This document shows, one piece after another, positions 1-5,132 of a DNA stretch of 5,132 bases. The DNA comes from a virus (Duplodnaviria > Heunggongvirae > Uroviricota > Caudoviricetes): IMG/VR virus record IMGVR_UViG_2636416161_000006; one strand, 5' to 3'. Within the stretch, counting starts at the first letter, position 1; every line of letters starts with the position of its first letter. A program made the translations under genes and the position numbers. The notes under the pieces were generated by a model. That model was given only the letters and a program-made list of their open reading frames with translations. It was not told the DNA's origin and made no database searches.

Positions 1-29
1 GTGTTGGTTCAGTTGGTTCAGTTGGTTCA
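1..29 (+). repeat. Three perfect tandem direct copies of the 9-bp motif GTTGGTTCA (3-11, 12-20, 21-29); extended 11-mer GTGTTGGTTCA at 1-11
   Basis: Read directly from sequence. The array starts at the first bases of the window, so further copies upstream cannot be excluded. Confidence 0.95.
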
Positions 30-72
30 ATTTGTAAAGAGTATTGTTTTATAAGGATTTTATTCTTTTTAT

Positions 73-115
73 TGAACCAACACTGAACCAACAACACGGC
101 ATTTTGAACCAACAC
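73..115 (-). repeat. Three copies of TGAACCAAC(A) at 73-81, 84-92 and 105-113, the exact reverse complement of the 1-29 motif (inverted orientation)
   Basis: Read directly from sequence. 73-83 and 105-115 are the full 11-mer TGAACCAACAC; 84-94 is TGAACCAACAA. Confidence 0.95.
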
Positions 116-209
116 AACGTGACTGAATTGATGAGCACAACATCTGGCTGGCATTAGAGAGTGTTTTACGAAATCTGAACACCACATCACTGGTTTCAGT
201 GGGAGATTG

Positions 210-668
210 ATGATGAAGATAATCGCAAAGGCTTTTCATCATGTATTTGGCAAAGTATCCGATTTGCCATCTGTAATACCGATGAACAACAGAAGGGAGA
301 TGCTGCTTGATGTGGTTGTGTTCCCATACATAGACCTTTCTGAACCAATGAAAGCAACTCTTTTCAGAAAGTATCTTGGCGACTTTAAACGCCGTTTTAC
401 AGGCGTTAACGGGATGGTTGATATCTGCTCCATCAGAGATATTGTTGAACTTGCAGGGATTAATTTGTGGGGAGAAGCGGCAGCAGCATACAAATGGCTT
501 GAACGCCTGCACTGTGTTTCATTCAGTGACATGAGTGCTGATATCGCTTTAATGGTTCCTCACAAAATCAATATGGTCTTTGCTGGTGGCAATTACACTT
601 ATCCATGGAACCAGGAACAAAGAGAGAACAGGAAAGCTCACGCCATGAAGAGTAATGCGACTCCATAA
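210..668 (+). CDS. Hypothetical protein, about 152 aa; possible helix-turn-helix or winged-helix DNA-binding segment (SIRDIVELAGINLWGEAAAAYKWLERL)
   Basis: ORF-track frame 207..668. GGGAGA at 201-206 is an SD-like element, so ATG at 210 (or 213) is a more plausible start than TTG at 207. Stop TAA 666-668, followed by an intrinsic terminator. The overlapping minus-strand ORFs look spurious. No family recognised. Confidence 0.7.
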   Translation: MMKIIAKAFHHVFGKVSDLPSVIPMNNRREMLLDVVVFPYIDLSEPMKATLFRKYLGDFKRRFTGVNGMVDICSIRDIVELAGINLWGEAAAAYKWLERLHCVSFSDMSADIALMVPHKINMVFAGGNYTYPWNQEQRENRKAHAMKSNATP

Positions 669-720
669 ATATAGTTTTTAGAGTCCATAAAAAAACTGTC
701 AAAACCTGACATACAGAACG

Positions 721-753
721 ATGCCACCAGCTACTGAACGGTGGCATTTTTTT
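721..753 (+). terminator. Rho-independent terminator: stem ATGCCACC / GGTGGCAT (8 bp), 11-nt loop, then a run of seven T
   Basis: Perfect 8-bp inverted repeat 721-728 / 740-747 followed by TTTTTTT (747-753), about 55 nt after the stop of the 210-668 CDS. The T-run is on the + strand only. Confidence 0.75.
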
Positions 754-785
754 GTGCTATTTGTTTCATATTTTGCAATCACAAT

Positions 786-815
786 GATGAATGTTGCGTT
801 TTATGAAACTATAAT
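786..815 (+). promoter_or_regulatory. Candidate sigma70 promoter for the 849-4598 operon: perfect -10 TATAAT (810-815) with a weak -35 (GATGAA/ATGAAT/TGAATG at 786-793)
   Basis: Consensus -10 hexamer 34 nt upstream of the first start codon of the unit and directly downstream of a terminator. The -35 matches TTGACA at only about 3 of 6 positions. Transcription start not determined. Confidence 0.45.
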
Positions 816-817
816 GA

Positions 818-833
818 CTGTTGTTTTATACAG
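818..833 (+). promoter_or_regulatory. LexA-box-like (SOS box) palindrome CTGTTGTTTTATACAG (CTGT-N8-ACAG)
   Basis: Matches the invariant CTGT and ACAG half-sites of the gammaproteobacterial LexA consensus TACTGTATATATATACAGTA, with an AT-rich centre. Lies between the -10 hexamer and the SD, a typical repressor position. Only one such site occurs in the window. Confidence 0.55.
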
Positions 834-848
834 TTCTAAGGGGGCGTT

Positions 849-1022
849 ATGGCTATTTCAGTAAAGCCAGTATTGATAAGTGAGAAGCAAATGGAAGCGA
901 TAAAGAAAATTCAGGAGGAGCAGCGTAAAAAATCAGAGGTAGGAGTTGCGCCAACGATCCACGAAATTGCTCGGGGATTAATGGATAAGGCGCTGGCTTA
1001 CACTTTAACTGGACGTGGGTAA
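849..1022 (+). CDS. Small protein, 57 aa (MAISVKPVLISEKQMEAIKKIQEEQRKKSEVGVAPTIHEIARGLMDKALAYTLTGRG); possible ribbon-helix-helix DNA-binding protein
   Basis: Not in the supplied ORF track, probably below its length cut-off. Strong SD AAGGGGG (838-844) 4 nt before ATG 849. Stop TAA 1020-1022 lies 4 nt before ATG 1027 of the next ORF. Pattern of short N-terminal strand (KPVLIS), helix, turn and helix resembles CopG/Arc-type RHH proteins. Fold assignment is inference. Confidence 0.65.
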   Translation: MAISVKPVLISEKQMEAIKKIQEEQRKKSEVGVAPTIHEIARGLMDKALAYTLTGRG

Positions 1023-1026
1023 ATCA

Positions 1027-2493
1027 ATGGCTACGTGGCAACAGGGTATTAATTCTGGTGGTTTTCTGGCTGGCATCGGTACGCAAAATGAGAATGCGCC
1101 AAAGGCAAGCGACATTAACGCAACGCTTGGTCTGATCCGCGAAAACAATGAACTGGCTCGCTCAGGTGCAAATAACGTTGCTCTGACAGGTCTTCGTGGT
1201 CTGGCTGGAGTTGCTGATATTTATAAGCAGCAGCAACAGCAGGAGCGTAAAGCGGCATTCCAGAAAGGTTATGCAGATGCTTATGCGTCCGGTGACAGGG
1301 AGCAGATGCGTAATCTTATTACAGCATTCCCAGAAGAGTTTGAGGAAGTCCGTAAAGGGATGAGTTATGTCGATGATGCTCAAAGGGATGATTATGGCAA
1401 TCTGGCGCTCAAAGCACAGGTAGCCTCATCGCTTGGTCCGGGCGCATTTGGCAGGTTCATGATGGATAATGAGCAGGAGATGCGTCGTTTAGGTATCCCT
1501 CCAGAAACTATTGCTGAAATGCAGGTTAATGACCCGCAGGGCTTCCAGCATTTCGCAGGTAATCTGGCGCTGTTTTCTCTCGGTCATGAGAAGTATTTCG
1601 ATATCAAAGATCAAATGGAAGGTCTGGATATTGAGCGTGGCAAGTTGGCAGAGACAATCCGCAGCAATCAGGCTGGCGAGGCACTTCAGGCGAGAGGGCA
1701 GGATATTAGCCGAGCAAATGCGTTAACGTCAGCATATGCACCAACAGCAGCAATGCAGAATTACAATCAGTACGCTCAAATGTTAAAGGCGGATCCTGAG
1801 GGGGCTGCGGCATTTGCGGCAGCGGCGGGAATTAATACAAACGCCAAAAAATTAATGAGTGTTAGAGAAAACGATGATGGCACTGTCACAAAATACTACA
1901 CAGACGGAAGTGAAGAGCAGGGAAAACTAAACCAGCCAATATCTGGAGATGGGTTTCGTCCAATAGCTTTGCCAACAGCCCAAAAGATCATGGAAAAGTC
2001 GCCAGAAGGGGCTAAAAAAGCTGCTGGATTTGCATACAGAGTTAGGGATGCTCTTGATTCAATAGATACACTGAAAGACCAGCTTAGCCCACAGCGAGTG
2101 GCGATCATTAATAATGCTTTGGGTAATGGGACGCTGGCTAACTTAACGCTCAGCCCAACAGAGCAGCAATACGTTGTTAATGCTAATGACGCAATAATGG
2201 CAATACTCCGTCAGGAAACAGGGGCAGCTATCGTACCTGCTGAAATGTCAAAATATTATCAAATGTATTTCCCTCAGCCTGGCGACTCCACAAAAACCAT
2301 TGATACCAAGCGCCGGAAGATGGAAAACCAGTTCAATTCGCTGAAAGCTGCTTCTGGTCGAGCTTATGATGCTTTGCGGGTTATTTCAGCAGTTGACAGA
2401 GGAACTTCTTCTTCGTCGCAGACATTGCCGCAATCTGAGCAGGTATCACAGCCAGCAGCCAGCAGTAACTTTTCTTCACTATGGGGTGATTAA
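1027..2493 (+). CDS. Hypothetical protein, 488 aa from ATG 1027 (492 aa if GTG 1015 is used); Gln/Ala-rich, low-complexity, no hydrophobic segment, function unknown
   Basis: Uninterrupted ORF of about 1.47 kb. ATG 1027 follows the upstream stop by 4 nt (translational coupling), with weak SD-like GTGGGT at 1015-1020. Its stop TAA 2491-2493 overlaps the next start in TAATG. Contains a QQQQQ run and Ala-rich tracts. No Walker, HxH, nuclease or other catalytic motif recognised. Confidence 0.9.
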   Translation: MATWQQGINSGGFLAGIGTQNENAPKASDINATLGLIRENNELARSGANNVALTGLRGLAGVADIYKQQQQQERKAAFQKGYADAYASGDREQMRNLITAFPEEFEEVRKGMSYVDDAQRDDYGNLALKAQVASSLGPGAFGRFMMDNEQEMRRLGIPPETIAEMQVNDPQGFQHFAGNLALFSLGHEKYFDIKDQMEGLDIERGKLAETIRSNQAGEALQARGQDISRANALTSAYAPTAAMQNYNQYAQMLKADPEGAAAFAAAAGINTNAKKLMSVRENDDGTVTKYYTDGSEEQGKLNQPISGDGFRPIALPTAQKIMEKSPEGAKKAAGFAYRVRDALDSIDTLKDQLSPQRVAIINNALGNGTLANLTLSPTEQQYVVNANDAIMAILRQETGAAIVPAEMSKYYQMYFPQPGDSTKTIDTKRRKMENQFNSLKAASGRAYDALRVISAVDRGTSSSSQTLPQSEQVSQPAASSNFSSLWGD

Positions 2494-4598
2494 TGGCTAA
2501 AGCATGGAAAGATGTTATCGCCTCTCCACAGTATCAGGCGTTAGCACCAGAACAAAAAGCGCAGGCTCAGGAGCAATACTTCAATGAAGTCGTGGCCCCG
2601 CAAGCCGGAGAAAGTGTAGAGCAGGCTAAGCAGGATTTTTATGCTGCCTATCCACTACCATCAACGAATGAAATAGACCGATCCCAATCAGCAACTCAAA
2701 ATATTCAACATACATCATCTGATAATTCTCTTGCGTCAGGGTATGCAAAGTTAGCTACTCAGCAAAGAGAGGGGCTTGAGCGTTCAGCAGAACAGGGAGC
2801 CAGTCTTGGGGCTGCGATGCGCGATGCTATAACAGGCGAAAGCCGAATGACTCCAGAGATGGAGAGACTGCAAAATGTCGACCTTGCCCCAGAGTTAACC
2901 TCACTCAGCATGGATGCTCTAAAAGCTCGATGGTCTCAACTTTTCGGCTCTGACGCATCTCAGGAAAAGATTCTTCAGAGCATGGGAGCGAAATTAAGGC
3001 AGGATGAGAAGGGTAACACTATCGTTTCCCTGCCATCCGGTGATTATGCTCTGAACAAGCCGGGTTTATCGCCGCAAGACGTGGCATCGTTTCTGGCTAA
3101 TGCGCTGGCGTTTACACCAGCGGGCAGGGCTGGAACGGTGCTTGGTGCCATAGGAAAATCAGCAGCTACAGATTTAGCACTACAGGGAGCCACCAGCCTT
3201 GCTGGTGGAGAAGATATTGATCCGTTACAAACGGTAATTTCTGCTGGCATTGGTGGTATTGGTAAGGGGCTGGAAAATACAGCGAGTGCGGTTTCGAGGG
3301 CTGTTCGTGGTGATATGTCGCCTGAAGCAAAGGCTGCTGTCAACTTTGCATCGGAAAGAAATCTGCCGTTAATGACCAGTGACATGCTGAAAGATAAAAC
3401 CTTTATGCAGAGTCAGGCTCAGACATTAGGCGAAAGAGTTCCTTTTTTTGGAACCGGTAAGAATCGGCTGAATCAACAACAAGCACGAGAAAATTTAGTC
3501 AGAACATTTAGCGATGGTCTGGGTGGCATTTCTGATAAACAGCTTTATGAATCTGCGACTAAAGGGCAACAAAAATTCATTGAGGCAGCAGGAAAGCGAT
3601 ATAACCGCATAATTGACGCTATGGGGGATACCCCTGTCGATCTCTCAAACACGGTAAAAGCTATCGACAATCAGATTGCCGTGTTAAGCCGCCCGGGCAA
3701 ATCTCAGGATAGAGCCGCGGTAAAAGTCTTGCAGCAATTTAAAGACGATATCACCAGCGGACCAAATGACCTGCGTCTGGCGAGGGAAAACAGAACCGAT
3801 CTTCGAAAGCGATTTATGGCGTCATCTGACACTGTTGATAAAGATACGCTCCAGAAAGCCAGCGATATTATCTACAAGGCATATACGGCGGATATGAAAA
3901 AAGCCGTAGCCAAAAATCTTGGAGCAGACGAAGCCATTAATATGGCAAGGGTTGATCGCTCATGGTCTAAATTCAATGACATGATGGGAAGAACGCGCGT
4001 TCAAAAGGCAATAGCCAGCGGCAAGGCCACGCCTGAGGATGTAACAAAACTCGTTTTTAGCCAAAGCCCATCAGAACGTTCTCAGCTTTACAGGCTTCTG
4101 GATGACAATGGTAGGCAAAACGCACGAGCAGCCATAGTTCAGAATGCTGTAGATAAGGCGACTGATCCGTCTGGAAATATCAGTGTTGAGAAGTTTATTA
4201 ATGCGTTACACCGGAACAGGAAGCAATCAGCAACTTTCTTTAAAGGCGTACATGGAAAGGAACTGGACGGCGTTATTAAATACCTCAACGATACAAGACA
4301 CGCGGCAAAAGCGAACGTTCAAAACTTAAATGGTCAGCAGCTTTATGGATTGTTAGTTGGTGGTGGCATCATAAACGCAGCAGTATTAGCGGGGATGCTA
4401 AAAACGGCTGCGTTTGTTGTTCCTGCTGCTGGTGCCGTAGGCGGAGCAGCGAAGGCATACGAAAGCCCTGTTATACGAAATGCCTTGTTACGTCTGGCAA
4501 ATACGCCAAAAGGTAGCACAGCATATGACAGAGCGATCAGTACGGTCACACAATCACTGACCACAGCAGCACAAGCATCGCAAAAGGAAGCTCAATAA
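2493..4598 (+). CDS. Hypothetical protein, 701 aa; mostly hydrophilic and low-complexity with a C-proximal Gly/Ala-rich hydrophobic hairpin (about aa 617-653); possible membrane-inserting protein
   Basis: Uninterrupted ORF of about 2.1 kb. SD GGGGTGA (2483-2489), ATG 2493 overlapping the upstream stop. Hydrophobic stretch LYGLLVGGGIINAAVLAGMLKTAAFVVPAAGAVGGAA is encoded at 4341-4451. Stop TAA 4596-4598. No family recognised. Confidence 0.9.
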   Translation: MAKAWKDVIASPQYQALAPEQKAQAQEQYFNEVVAPQAGESVEQAKQDFYAAYPLPSTNEIDRSQSATQNIQHTSSDNSLASGYAKLATQQREGLERSAEQGASLGAAMRDAITGESRMTPEMERLQNVDLAPELTSLSMDALKARWSQLFGSDASQEKILQSMGAKLRQDEKGNTIVSLPSGDYALNKPGLSPQDVASFLANALAFTPAGRAGTVLGAIGKSAATDLALQGATSLAGGEDIDPLQTVISAGIGGIGKGLENTASAVSRAVRGDMSPEAKAAVNFASERNLPLMTSDMLKDKTFMQSQAQTLGERVPFFGTGKNRLNQQQARENLVRTFSDGLGGISDKQLYESATKGQQKFIEAAGKRYNRIIDAMGDTPVDLSNTVKAIDNQIAVLSRPGKSQDRAAVKVLQQFKDDITSGPNDLRLARENRTDLRKRFMASSDTVDKDTLQKASDIIYKAYTADMKKAVAKNLGADEAINMARVDRSWSKFNDMMGRTRVQKAIASGKATPEDVTKLVFSQSPSERSQLYRLLDDNGRQNARAAIVQNAVDKATDPSGNISVEKFINALHRNRKQSATFFKGVHGKELDGVIKYLNDTRHAAKANVQNLNGQQLYGLLVGGGIINAAVLAGMLKTAAFVVPAAGAVGGAAKAYESPVIRNALLRLANTPKGSTAYDRAISTVTQSLTTAAQASQKEAQ
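3190..3208. other. Back-to-back Chi octamers forming a perfect palindrome CCACCAGC-CTT-GCTGGTGG
   Basis: GCTGGTGG (E. coli Chi) on + at 3201-3208 and its reverse complement at 3190-3197, i.e. Chi on the minus strand. Additional Chi octamers at 582-589 (+) and 724-731 (-, inside the terminator stem). Confidence 0.6.
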
Positions 4599-4659
4599 CA
4601 GATGACCATGGATGGTTGGTTATAATAGTAATTAGTATTTTTTCAAATAGTTATGAACA

Positions 4660-5058
4660 TTAACACTTGCCTTTAACATTGCCGACAAATGAGCCTGTAA
4701 ATGAGCCTATATCAGATCGACTAATTGTTCGTGTATGGATCACTTTTCCGTCATTTGAGATTGCCCATGTGACAAGCGTCAGTTGACCATCTCGATAGCT
4801 TCTTCCCATCATGGCATTCGGAGATAGCGGGTAATAATCAATACCTCCACCTATACCATCTTTTGCCAAGATAAGATCCGCCTTCTCTTTACTTATTACC
4901 AAATGAAATGTATCTGGTATAGATGATAACTTATAGTTATACCCATCTGAACTTGAGGCTTCTTGTCCTTTCAGATCACCAATAATCCAGCATTCAGCGT
5001 TCGCTCCAAAAGAAGCAAATAATAAACCGGAGACAACCAATCGCTTCAATTGATTCAC
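4660..5058 (-). CDS. Small secreted (periplasmic) protein, 132 aa precursor with a predicted Sec signal peptide (MNQLKRLVVSGLLFASFGANA, cleavage after ANA); mature domain of about 111 aa begins ECW and ends in Cys
   Basis: ORF-track frame 4660..5121. An internal GTG (5056-5058) is preceded at 6-nt spacing by the strong SD AAAGGGAGG and gives a textbook signal peptide (N-terminal K/R, hydrophobic core, AxA site). The upstream ATG at 5121 has no SD within the window and would add 21 non-signal residues. Not a lipobox (E at -1). About 42 percent GC by hand count of several lines. Confidence 0.75.
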   Translation of the reverse strand: MNQLKRLVVSGLLFASFGANAECWIIGDLKGQEASSSDGYNYKLSSIPDTFHLVISKEKADLILAKDGIGGGIDYYPLSPNAMMGRSYRDGQLTLVTWAISNDGKVIHTRTISRSDIGSFTGSFVGNVKGKC

Positions 5059-5132
5059 ACCAACCCTCCCTTTAGCGTTGTTTAGAATGGCAATTGGATT
5101 TGCCCCTATATTTCCAGACATCTGTTATCACT

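Follow-up and report, generated by a model that had tools for sequence, protein, structure and literature searches.

SaPI replication origins contain 6–12 iterons directly 3' of rep, set around an AT-rich centre with at least two iterons per side in opposite directions, and these iterons are recognised by the C-terminal winged-helix domain of SaPI Rep (PMC9371898). In the crystal structure of the SCCmec helicase Cch, the C-terminal domain holds a dsDNA-binding winged helix (PMC9371898). Cch and SaPIbov1 Rep represent the DUF927 branch of these helicases, and the primases of SaPIbov1 and SaPI5 are of the AEP type (PMC7581432). For EcCICFT073, the available text of PMC6092414 reports that a pri-ori plasmid built in the temperature-sensitive vector pKO3-blue was maintained at the restrictive temperature and that deletion of pri or ori impaired maintenance. 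The SaPI/PICI origin definitions used below are those of PMC9371898 and of the available text of PMC6092414. In the EcCICFT073 sequence itself, the origin carries CTGTCTACC twice head-to-tail (9-nt) from 14 nt past the stop codon, followed by an AT-rich gap and by inverted and further copies. The P22-like phage Kapi1 induces and transfers EcCIMP1, a phage-inducible chromosomal island (PICI) of E. coli MP1; the available text of the description of EcCIMP1 makes no mention of iterons and describes no origin (PMC11773190).

In the satellite P4, for which the ori and crr facts were taken from the annotated record (L085), crr (L085 4291–4590) follows the alpha gene directly on the 3' side, 4.5 kb from the annotated ori. 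The crr contains two units of 120 bp, in each of which type-1 repeats of opposed orientation flank an AT-rich gap of ~35 nt; its design and position are those of the element called 'ori' in PICIs. The type-1 octamer is bound by the C-terminal domain of alpha, both repeat clusters are required in cis, and DNA looping or pairing between ori and crr has been reported. The iteron plasmids pPS10, R6K, RK2, F and P1 (RepA/pi/TrfA) have 17–22-bp direct iterons, DnaA boxes and host-loaded DnaB, and their Rep proteins are winged-helix proteins without a helicase.

Here we analysed a 5,132-nt stretch of DNA (the window) that opens with a short repeat array. The original prediction had taken this array for a multi-site binding platform of a dimeric or oligomeric DNA-binding protein, with an iteron origin, an autoregulated operator or a partition centromere as the options. 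Our analysis indicates that window 1–113 very probably constitutes a complete module of the origin from which an EcCIMP1-type PICI, a phage satellite integrated at tRNA-Thr, replicates. The kind of origin is known already; the literature searched contains no description of this member or of its iteron, and a text search for GTTGGTTCA, whose scope ended short of the iteron sequences in Fig. 2a of PMC6092414, returned unrelated papers only.

Architecture of the repeat array

The array is composed of two facing arms. The left arm comprises three exact copies of GTTGGTTCA on the + strand, head-to-tail at 9-nt spacing (3–11, 12–20 and 21–29), and the right arm comprises three exact copies of TGAACCAAC on the − strand (73–81, 84–92 and 105–113), with start-to-start spacings of 11 and 21 nt that become 21 and 21 nt in EcCIMP1. 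Between them lies an AT-rich spacer of 43 bp with 7 G/C (30–72), identified by its composition and by a minimum of nearest-neighbour stability. The least stable 30-mer of the neighbourhood falls inside this spacer and ranks within the 0.7% of the 25-kb locus that have the lowest stability, and the spacer is presumed to be the DNA-unwinding region between the arms. With at most one mismatch allowed, GTTGGTTCA matches the window nine times against 1.01 expected, a number reached by none of 200 dinucleotide-preserving shuffles of the window. The six exact copies, three per strand, and the spacer with its 7 G/C are thus present as the original prediction had described them.

That prediction had also regarded the array as truncated by the window start, which proved incorrect. 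Window 1–1100 matches the E. coli T309.Ta3 chromosome with 100% identity, and a 25-kb region with flanks was taken from this chromosome as locus L001 (window base 1 = L001 12001). Extension into this chromosome, proposed as a check, revealed no further 9-mer copy 5' of the array. Directly 5' of the window lies a gene for a 918-aa primase–helicase, whose TGA stop codon (L001 11975–11977) is followed by 23 non-repeat bases, so that the first iteron begins 26 nt past the stop codon. Because these non-repeat bases and the stop codon precede it, the array is complete on its 5' side.

Within the spacer, a conserved core, TGTTTTATAAGG (45–56, + strand), emerged when 22 spacers of 43 nt, drawn from two iteron classes, were compared column by column. 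Its family consensus is TG[A/T]TTTATAAGG, and its position is fixed whatever the iteron class. Origins of the GTTGGTTCA and GTTGTCTCA types share the same core, and more distant lineages have looser variants of it. The core does not correspond to a DnaA box; it may be a melting nucleus, a primase start site or a host-factor site. A scan for DnaA boxes, suggested together with the original prediction, gave no match in window 1–1200 with one mismatch allowed, and a search of the window against Rfam returned no family.

The array adjoins the gene of a putative initiator

The 918-aa primase–helicase contains Zn_Ribbon_Prim (residues 34–69), Toprim_3 (221–318) and DUF927 (365–643) domains. As a single query, the protein matched PDB 8tch, named 'Pathogenicity island protein', at E=1.4e-11. 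When a profile built from 33 relatives was used, the values were E=1.7e-32 for 8tch and E=8e-24 for the SCCmec helicase Cch (5dgk), and the Cch alignment extends to profile position 903 of 911, the C-terminal domain included. A structure prediction for residues 640–918, made from a shallow 7-sequence alignment, has a mean pLDDT of 48.7 and displays a helix–helix–hairpin pattern at the very end; because this model is of low confidence, it is the profile homology with Cch that backs the winged-helix fold. The primase half is 33% identical to P4 alpha over 355 residues (E=1e-41), and the helicase and C-terminal parts have no similarity to P4 alpha.

The array is likely bound by this primase–helicase encoded just upstream, and not by the small ORFs on its other side. 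The 152-aa ORF (210–668, + strand), with an intrinsic terminator downstream (stem 730–745 and a T-run), and the 57-aa ORF (WP_001018522.1; 849–1022, + strand) were the candidates put forward initially, and both appear unlikely as binders, since neither matches a family in Pfam, PHROGs or NCBIfam. The 152-aa ORF is, moreover, missing from EcCIMP1 and from a 12-kb circular relative, in which unrelated non-coding sequence stands in its place and the array is intact. In view of this replacement, the 152-aa ORF represents a variable cassette beside the origin. Homology with EcCIMP1 stops at about window 172. An imperfect palindrome, CTGAACACCACATCACTGGTTTCAG, lies at window 174–198, just 5' of the 152-aa ORF, and its halves resemble degenerate iterons; it may mark the junction of the variable cassette. 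The 57-aa ORF is kept in EcCIMP1-type islands, and its end reaches the start region of the gp20-like gene.

Comparison with described origins

The array shares the main features of SaPI origins, such as those of SaPIbov1, SaPI1 and SaPI5, and of the origins of Gram-negative PICIs such as EcCICFT073. It lies directly 3' of a rep/pri-rep ORF, its opposed iteron sets surround an AT-rich centre (three + copies, the 43-bp spacer, three − copies), and its iteron sequence is specific to the cognate initiator, motif and C-terminus being physically linked. There are six copies per module, and 12 together with the second module described below, as compared with the SaPI range of 6–12. The initiator itself is a SaPI Rep/Cch-like helicase of the DUF927 type fused to a primase. 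The array differs from SaPI origins in iteron length, 9–10 bp here and 5–6 nt in SaPIs, and in the primase, which is of the Toprim (DnaG-like) type here and of the AEP type in SaPIbov1 and SaPI5 (PMC7581432). The origin of EcCICFT073 has the same design as the window array. However, its initiator displays no detectable sequence similarity to the 918-aa protein (BLASTP E=1.2), and the functional proof obtained for EcCICFT073 consequently carries over by analogy only.

P4 resembles the present system in being a temperate-phage satellite whose Zn-ribbon and Toprim primase domain is homologous, in having repeats in two orientations around an AT-rich gap 3' of the gene, and in having another cluster kilobases away. 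By contrast, the P4 repeat is the octamer TGTTCACC and the array here is built of GTTGGTTCA, so that the P4 octamer is not the repeat unit of this array; furthermore, the two P4 clusters carry distinct annotated roles, as ori and as crr, whereas the modules here are mirror copies. Iteron plasmids likewise have repeated initiator sites next to an AT-rich unwinding region, with matched specificity of iteron and initiator, but the sites here are convergent and 9 bp long, and the initiator is itself a helicase–primase. A plasmid-type origin (RepA/pi/TrfA) was rejected on the convergent 9-mers, the lack of a DnaA box in the region scanned, and the primase and helicase domains of the initiator.

The array lies in an EcCIMP1-type island

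The array is situated in a ~17-kb island at tRNA-Thr. The ends of the island are formed by a duplication of the tRNA-Thr 3' end (L001 3405–3453 and about 20705–20760), located at about L001 3433 and 20739 and thus about 17.3 kb apart. The core of this boundary repeat is TCCTCTTATC, one base off the TCCTATTATC printed for EcCIMP1, and the published EcCIMP1 att core has no exact match in locus L001. The 5' part of the island encodes, in order, an integrase, an AlpA-family regulator (PF05930), an AntA/B antirepressor, DUF4222, Ash and several small ORFs. The middle part comprises the 918-aa primase–helicase, the repeat array, the 152-aa ORF and the 57-aa ORF. In the 3' part, genes for P22 gp20-like (1027–2493, + strand) and gp16-like (2493–4598, + strand) DNA ejection (transfer) proteins are followed by a 204-aa ORF on the opposite strand (window 4617–5132, − strand; full gene L001 16617–17231), which is weakly similar to the SieA-like superinfection-exclusion family (phrog_7745, E=1.9e-4), by two hypothetical genes on the opposite strand, and by PerC.

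Nearly all genes of the island share one strand. The att-site integrase, AlpA, the primase/rep gene, the rightward gene order and a size within 10–20 kb are those of a Gram-negative PICI, and capsid and terminase genes are absent from this satellite, in keeping with the lack of a full structural gene set in PICIs. Our comparison reveals that the island is a close variant of EcCIMP1, with near-identical organisation, the same site and the same adjoining vat/MarR island. The EcCIMP1 set of ejection-protein genes is longer than that of the window's island and includes DUF2824; a possible packaging or morphogenesis role for the ejection-type genes is given in the available text of PMC11773190, and the induction by a helper described there was demonstrated for EcCIMP1 only, not for the window's island.

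Window 1–135 matches 489 of 5,426 complete E. coli genomes (about 9%), and in 384 of the 489 the match covers 80% or more of this segment. The median is two places per genome, as expected for paired modules. None of the matches listed falls under an annotated feature. Two related records are deposited as circular plasmids, for which no replicon type is given: L003 (NZ_CP148430.1, 12,152 bp, E. coli), with the primase, both origin modules, PerC and the integrase, and L002 (CP031370.2, 19,229 bp), with the primase, both origin modules and PerC. These records may be excised, replicating satellites caught by assembly; they are consistent with an episomal replicating form, without proving it.

The layout is conserved and the motif is not

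We then surveyed relatives of the primase–helicase, using an alignment of ten primase homologues as the scan and one genome per species, which gave 80 loci with primase identities from 99% to 27%; loci with frameshifted primase genes were left out of the alignments. For full-length genes, the most repeated 9-mer on both strands was determined in the 700 nt past the stop codon, and all of its copies were then mapped. The same layout was found at the same place in about 30 species, across primase identities of 99% to 27%. In almost every locus, two or three + copies at 9-nt spacing are followed by a gap and by three − copies, often at +11 and +21. The first copy starts at +17 to +83 past the primase stop in the 30 relatives, and exact 9-mer copies upstream of that stop occurred in 0 of 34 related loci. 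All 30 relatives have an AT-rich gap, with a mean GC of 0.20 as compared with 0.51 for the locus, and in most of them it is exactly 43 nt long.

By comparison, the iteron itself varies: at least 12 classes of motif were counted among the primase lineages, all in the same layout. The GTTGGTTCA class includes the window and many Enterobacterales, and the GTTGTCTCA class includes Enterobacter, Kosakonia, Shimwellia and others. A Pseudomonas carries GTTGTACCA, a Morganella AGTGTGTCA, and a Beggiatoa 17 copies of GTGGGTACA; further lineages carry GGTGTAACA, CTGGTAACA, TGTACTACA, GTTATCCCA and more. In an alignment of seven module sequences (E. coli, including EcCIMP1 and the 12-kb circular relative, and Klebsiella), the invariant columns are those of the 9-mers, with their register; the flanks vary, and the stretches that separate the right-arm copies vary freely. 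The association was also recovered in the reverse direction: among 120 viral contigs found by GTTGGTTCAGTTGGTTCA alone, there are 74 that encode the C-terminal domain of the primase, and in every one of these 74 the tandem motif lies at most 120 nt from the end of that domain.

Iteron class and the C-terminal domain

Same-motif pairs of proteins are more alike in residues 815–918 than other pairs in every identity bin for residues 1–814. At the level of sequence, the motif changes together with the C-terminal ~100 residues of the protein, a region with homology to the domain at the C-terminus of staphylococcal Cch that binds DNA. When 20 GTTGGTTCA-type proteins are compared with five close (about 80% identical) GTTGTCTCA-type proteins, six alignment columns separate the two classes perfectly, corresponding to residues 823, 891, 892, 893, 896 and 910 of 918. 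The segment SGRGYQRKSPRI is invariant in all GTTGGTTCA members, one of which is merely 55% identical overall. Within the C-terminal domain, GRGYQRKSPRI (residues 886–896, L001 about 11876–11908) is invariant in 20 of 20 GTTGGTTCA-type proteins and altered in every other class, and it is a candidate specificity determinant. The RKS at 891–893 is replaced by GRV in the close GTTGTCTCA group, and R at 892 also occurs in a distant GTTGTCTCA lineage (about 52% identical).

Such covariation is also expected from linkage, because the C-terminal codons are no more than a few hundred bases away from the iterons, and recombination of the tract suffices to produce it. All motif copies change in concert, which requires one reader with changed specificity. 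We infer from the homology with Rep and Cch that this reader is the adjacent C-terminal domain.

A second module near perC

A second module, module B, is located 7.9 kb downstream, outside the window (L001 19927–20047, equivalent to window coordinates 7927–8047). It contains five exact copies of GTTGGTTCA and one with one mismatch, arranged as three + copies at 21-nt spacing, a 43-nt spacer with 8 G/C, and three − copies head-to-tail, and it ends 37 nt before perC. When reverse-complemented, module B aligns with the window module, the flank AAAAGGTGTTGG...ATTTGTAAAGA included, and the two are therefore mirror copies. The modules are 8.5 kb apart in EcCIMP1 and 1.8 kb apart in the 12-kb circular E. 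coli record. They are contiguous in Klebsiella, Pseudomonas, Morganella and Beggiatoa, the last of which has three. The contiguity in most other genera suggests that E. coli islands hold a split two-module origin with accessory genes between its halves; the cargo between the modules here comprises the 152-aa and 57-aa ORFs, the P22-type ejection-protein genes and the SieA-like gene. This split arrangement was not found mentioned in the available text of the two PICI papers.

Alternative explanations

The array might bind the primase–helicase and yet be an auxiliary cis site like P4 crr, one that would enhance or license replication by protein-mediated pairing while replication starts at the perC module or elsewhere. 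The position of crr directly 3' of alpha, with ori 4.5 kb off, the two clusters of the island, 7.9 kb apart, and the homology of the primase half to alpha (33% identity, E=1e-41) speak for such a role. We nevertheless consider it unlikely: the helicase and C-terminal parts resemble SaPI Rep/Cch and not P4 alpha, the cluster 3' of rep is the functional origin in SaPIs and EcCICFT073, both modules have the full iteron/AT-rich/iteron design as mirror copies, and their contiguity in most genera suggests one origin region, not two different elements. An even lower probability attaches to a transcriptional operator or a copy-control (handcuffing) site that regulates downstream genes or titrates the initiator. 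Plasmid iteron arrays commonly have such secondary roles, the array is intergenic and 5' of the 152-aa ORF, and module B ends 37 nt before perC. Against this, no sigma-70-like promoter was found in window 1–200 or between module B and perC, the one sigma-70-like site in the scanned window region (418–445) being fewer than in shuffles. Moreover, the downstream gene is not conserved, the 152-aa ORF being missing in EcCIMP1 and the 12-kb relative, whereas the upstream gene and the distance to its stop codon always are, and an operator would leave the conserved AT-rich spacer of fixed length unexplained.

Some pac sites have repeated short motifs around a central region, and the array could in principle be a packaging site for the small terminase of a helper, like the repeated hexamers of P1 pac. 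A P22-like helper packages EcCIMP1, whose packaging signal the available text of PMC11773190 gives as unknown. This reading is very improbable, however, given that the motif changes with the island's own initiator domain and not with any helper, that the same layout recurs in lineages as distant as Beggiatoa and Pseudomonas, that the P22 pac sequence was not found in the 25-kb locus, and that a phage-collection search with the window gave matches to bases 1017–1100 only. Least credible of all is a partition centromere or a transposon terminal inverted repeat, for which the bare anatomy of clustered short repeats in both orientations is the sole argument; the array is internal to an island bounded by the duplicated tRNA-Thr 3' end, it abuts the primase–helicase gene in all relatives, and the island has no annotated gene for a transposase or for a protein of the ParA/ParB/ParM type. 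A centromere was accordingly rejected, the neighbouring small ORFs being without family hits, and so was a transposon end, with no transposase between or beside the modules. The possibility, raised initially, that the sequence upstream would turn out to be a known transposon end fell away, as that sequence is the primase–helicase gene. Of the three options offered by the original prediction, the iteron origin is the one that the evidence favours: in all relatives examined, the array accompanies the 3' end of a gene for a replication initiator. The operator and the centromere find no support, no sigma-70-like promoter lying in window 1–200 and no partition genes being annotated in the island.

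Model of the proposed origin

The reading that we prefer is that of a PICI origin module, in which protein binding, melting and the start of replication would take place at the array. On this reading, the original prediction would be right in its broad view of the array as a platform with many sites for an oligomeric protein that binds DNA. In the proposed mechanism, the 918-aa primase–helicase would recognise the 9-bp iterons through its C-terminal domain, and oligomers would assemble on the two opposed arms, one hexamer per side as proposed for SaPI Rep. The 43-bp AT-rich spacer would be melted between these oligomers, and the fused Toprim primase would prime synthesis. The mirror module 7.9 kb downstream, just 5' of perC, may be part of the same origin system. 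A more specific proposal, that E. coli islands possess a two-module origin split around cargo and that the iteron class is set by a few residues of the C-terminal domain (RKS/GRV), is put forward tentatively, and we regard it as a possibility more doubtful than not.

If the bound modules pair as in P4, the result would be a looped, bipartite origin that brackets the satellite cargo. If residues 891–893, which lie in a strand–turn–strand segment, set the class, they would provide a simple, readable code for mutually compatible satellite replicons. The comparative panel, with one layout, a dozen iteron sequences and a few co-varying residues, offers a test of how a self-loading helicase reads its origin, and the same panel may be used for building orthogonal replicons. 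The split two-module arrangement would be a modest, testable addition to the picture of PICI replication. With the origin reading, an unannotated 113-bp element, carried by about 9% of complete E. coli genomes, would gain a function, and the origin missing from the description of the EcCIMP1 satellite family would be supplied.
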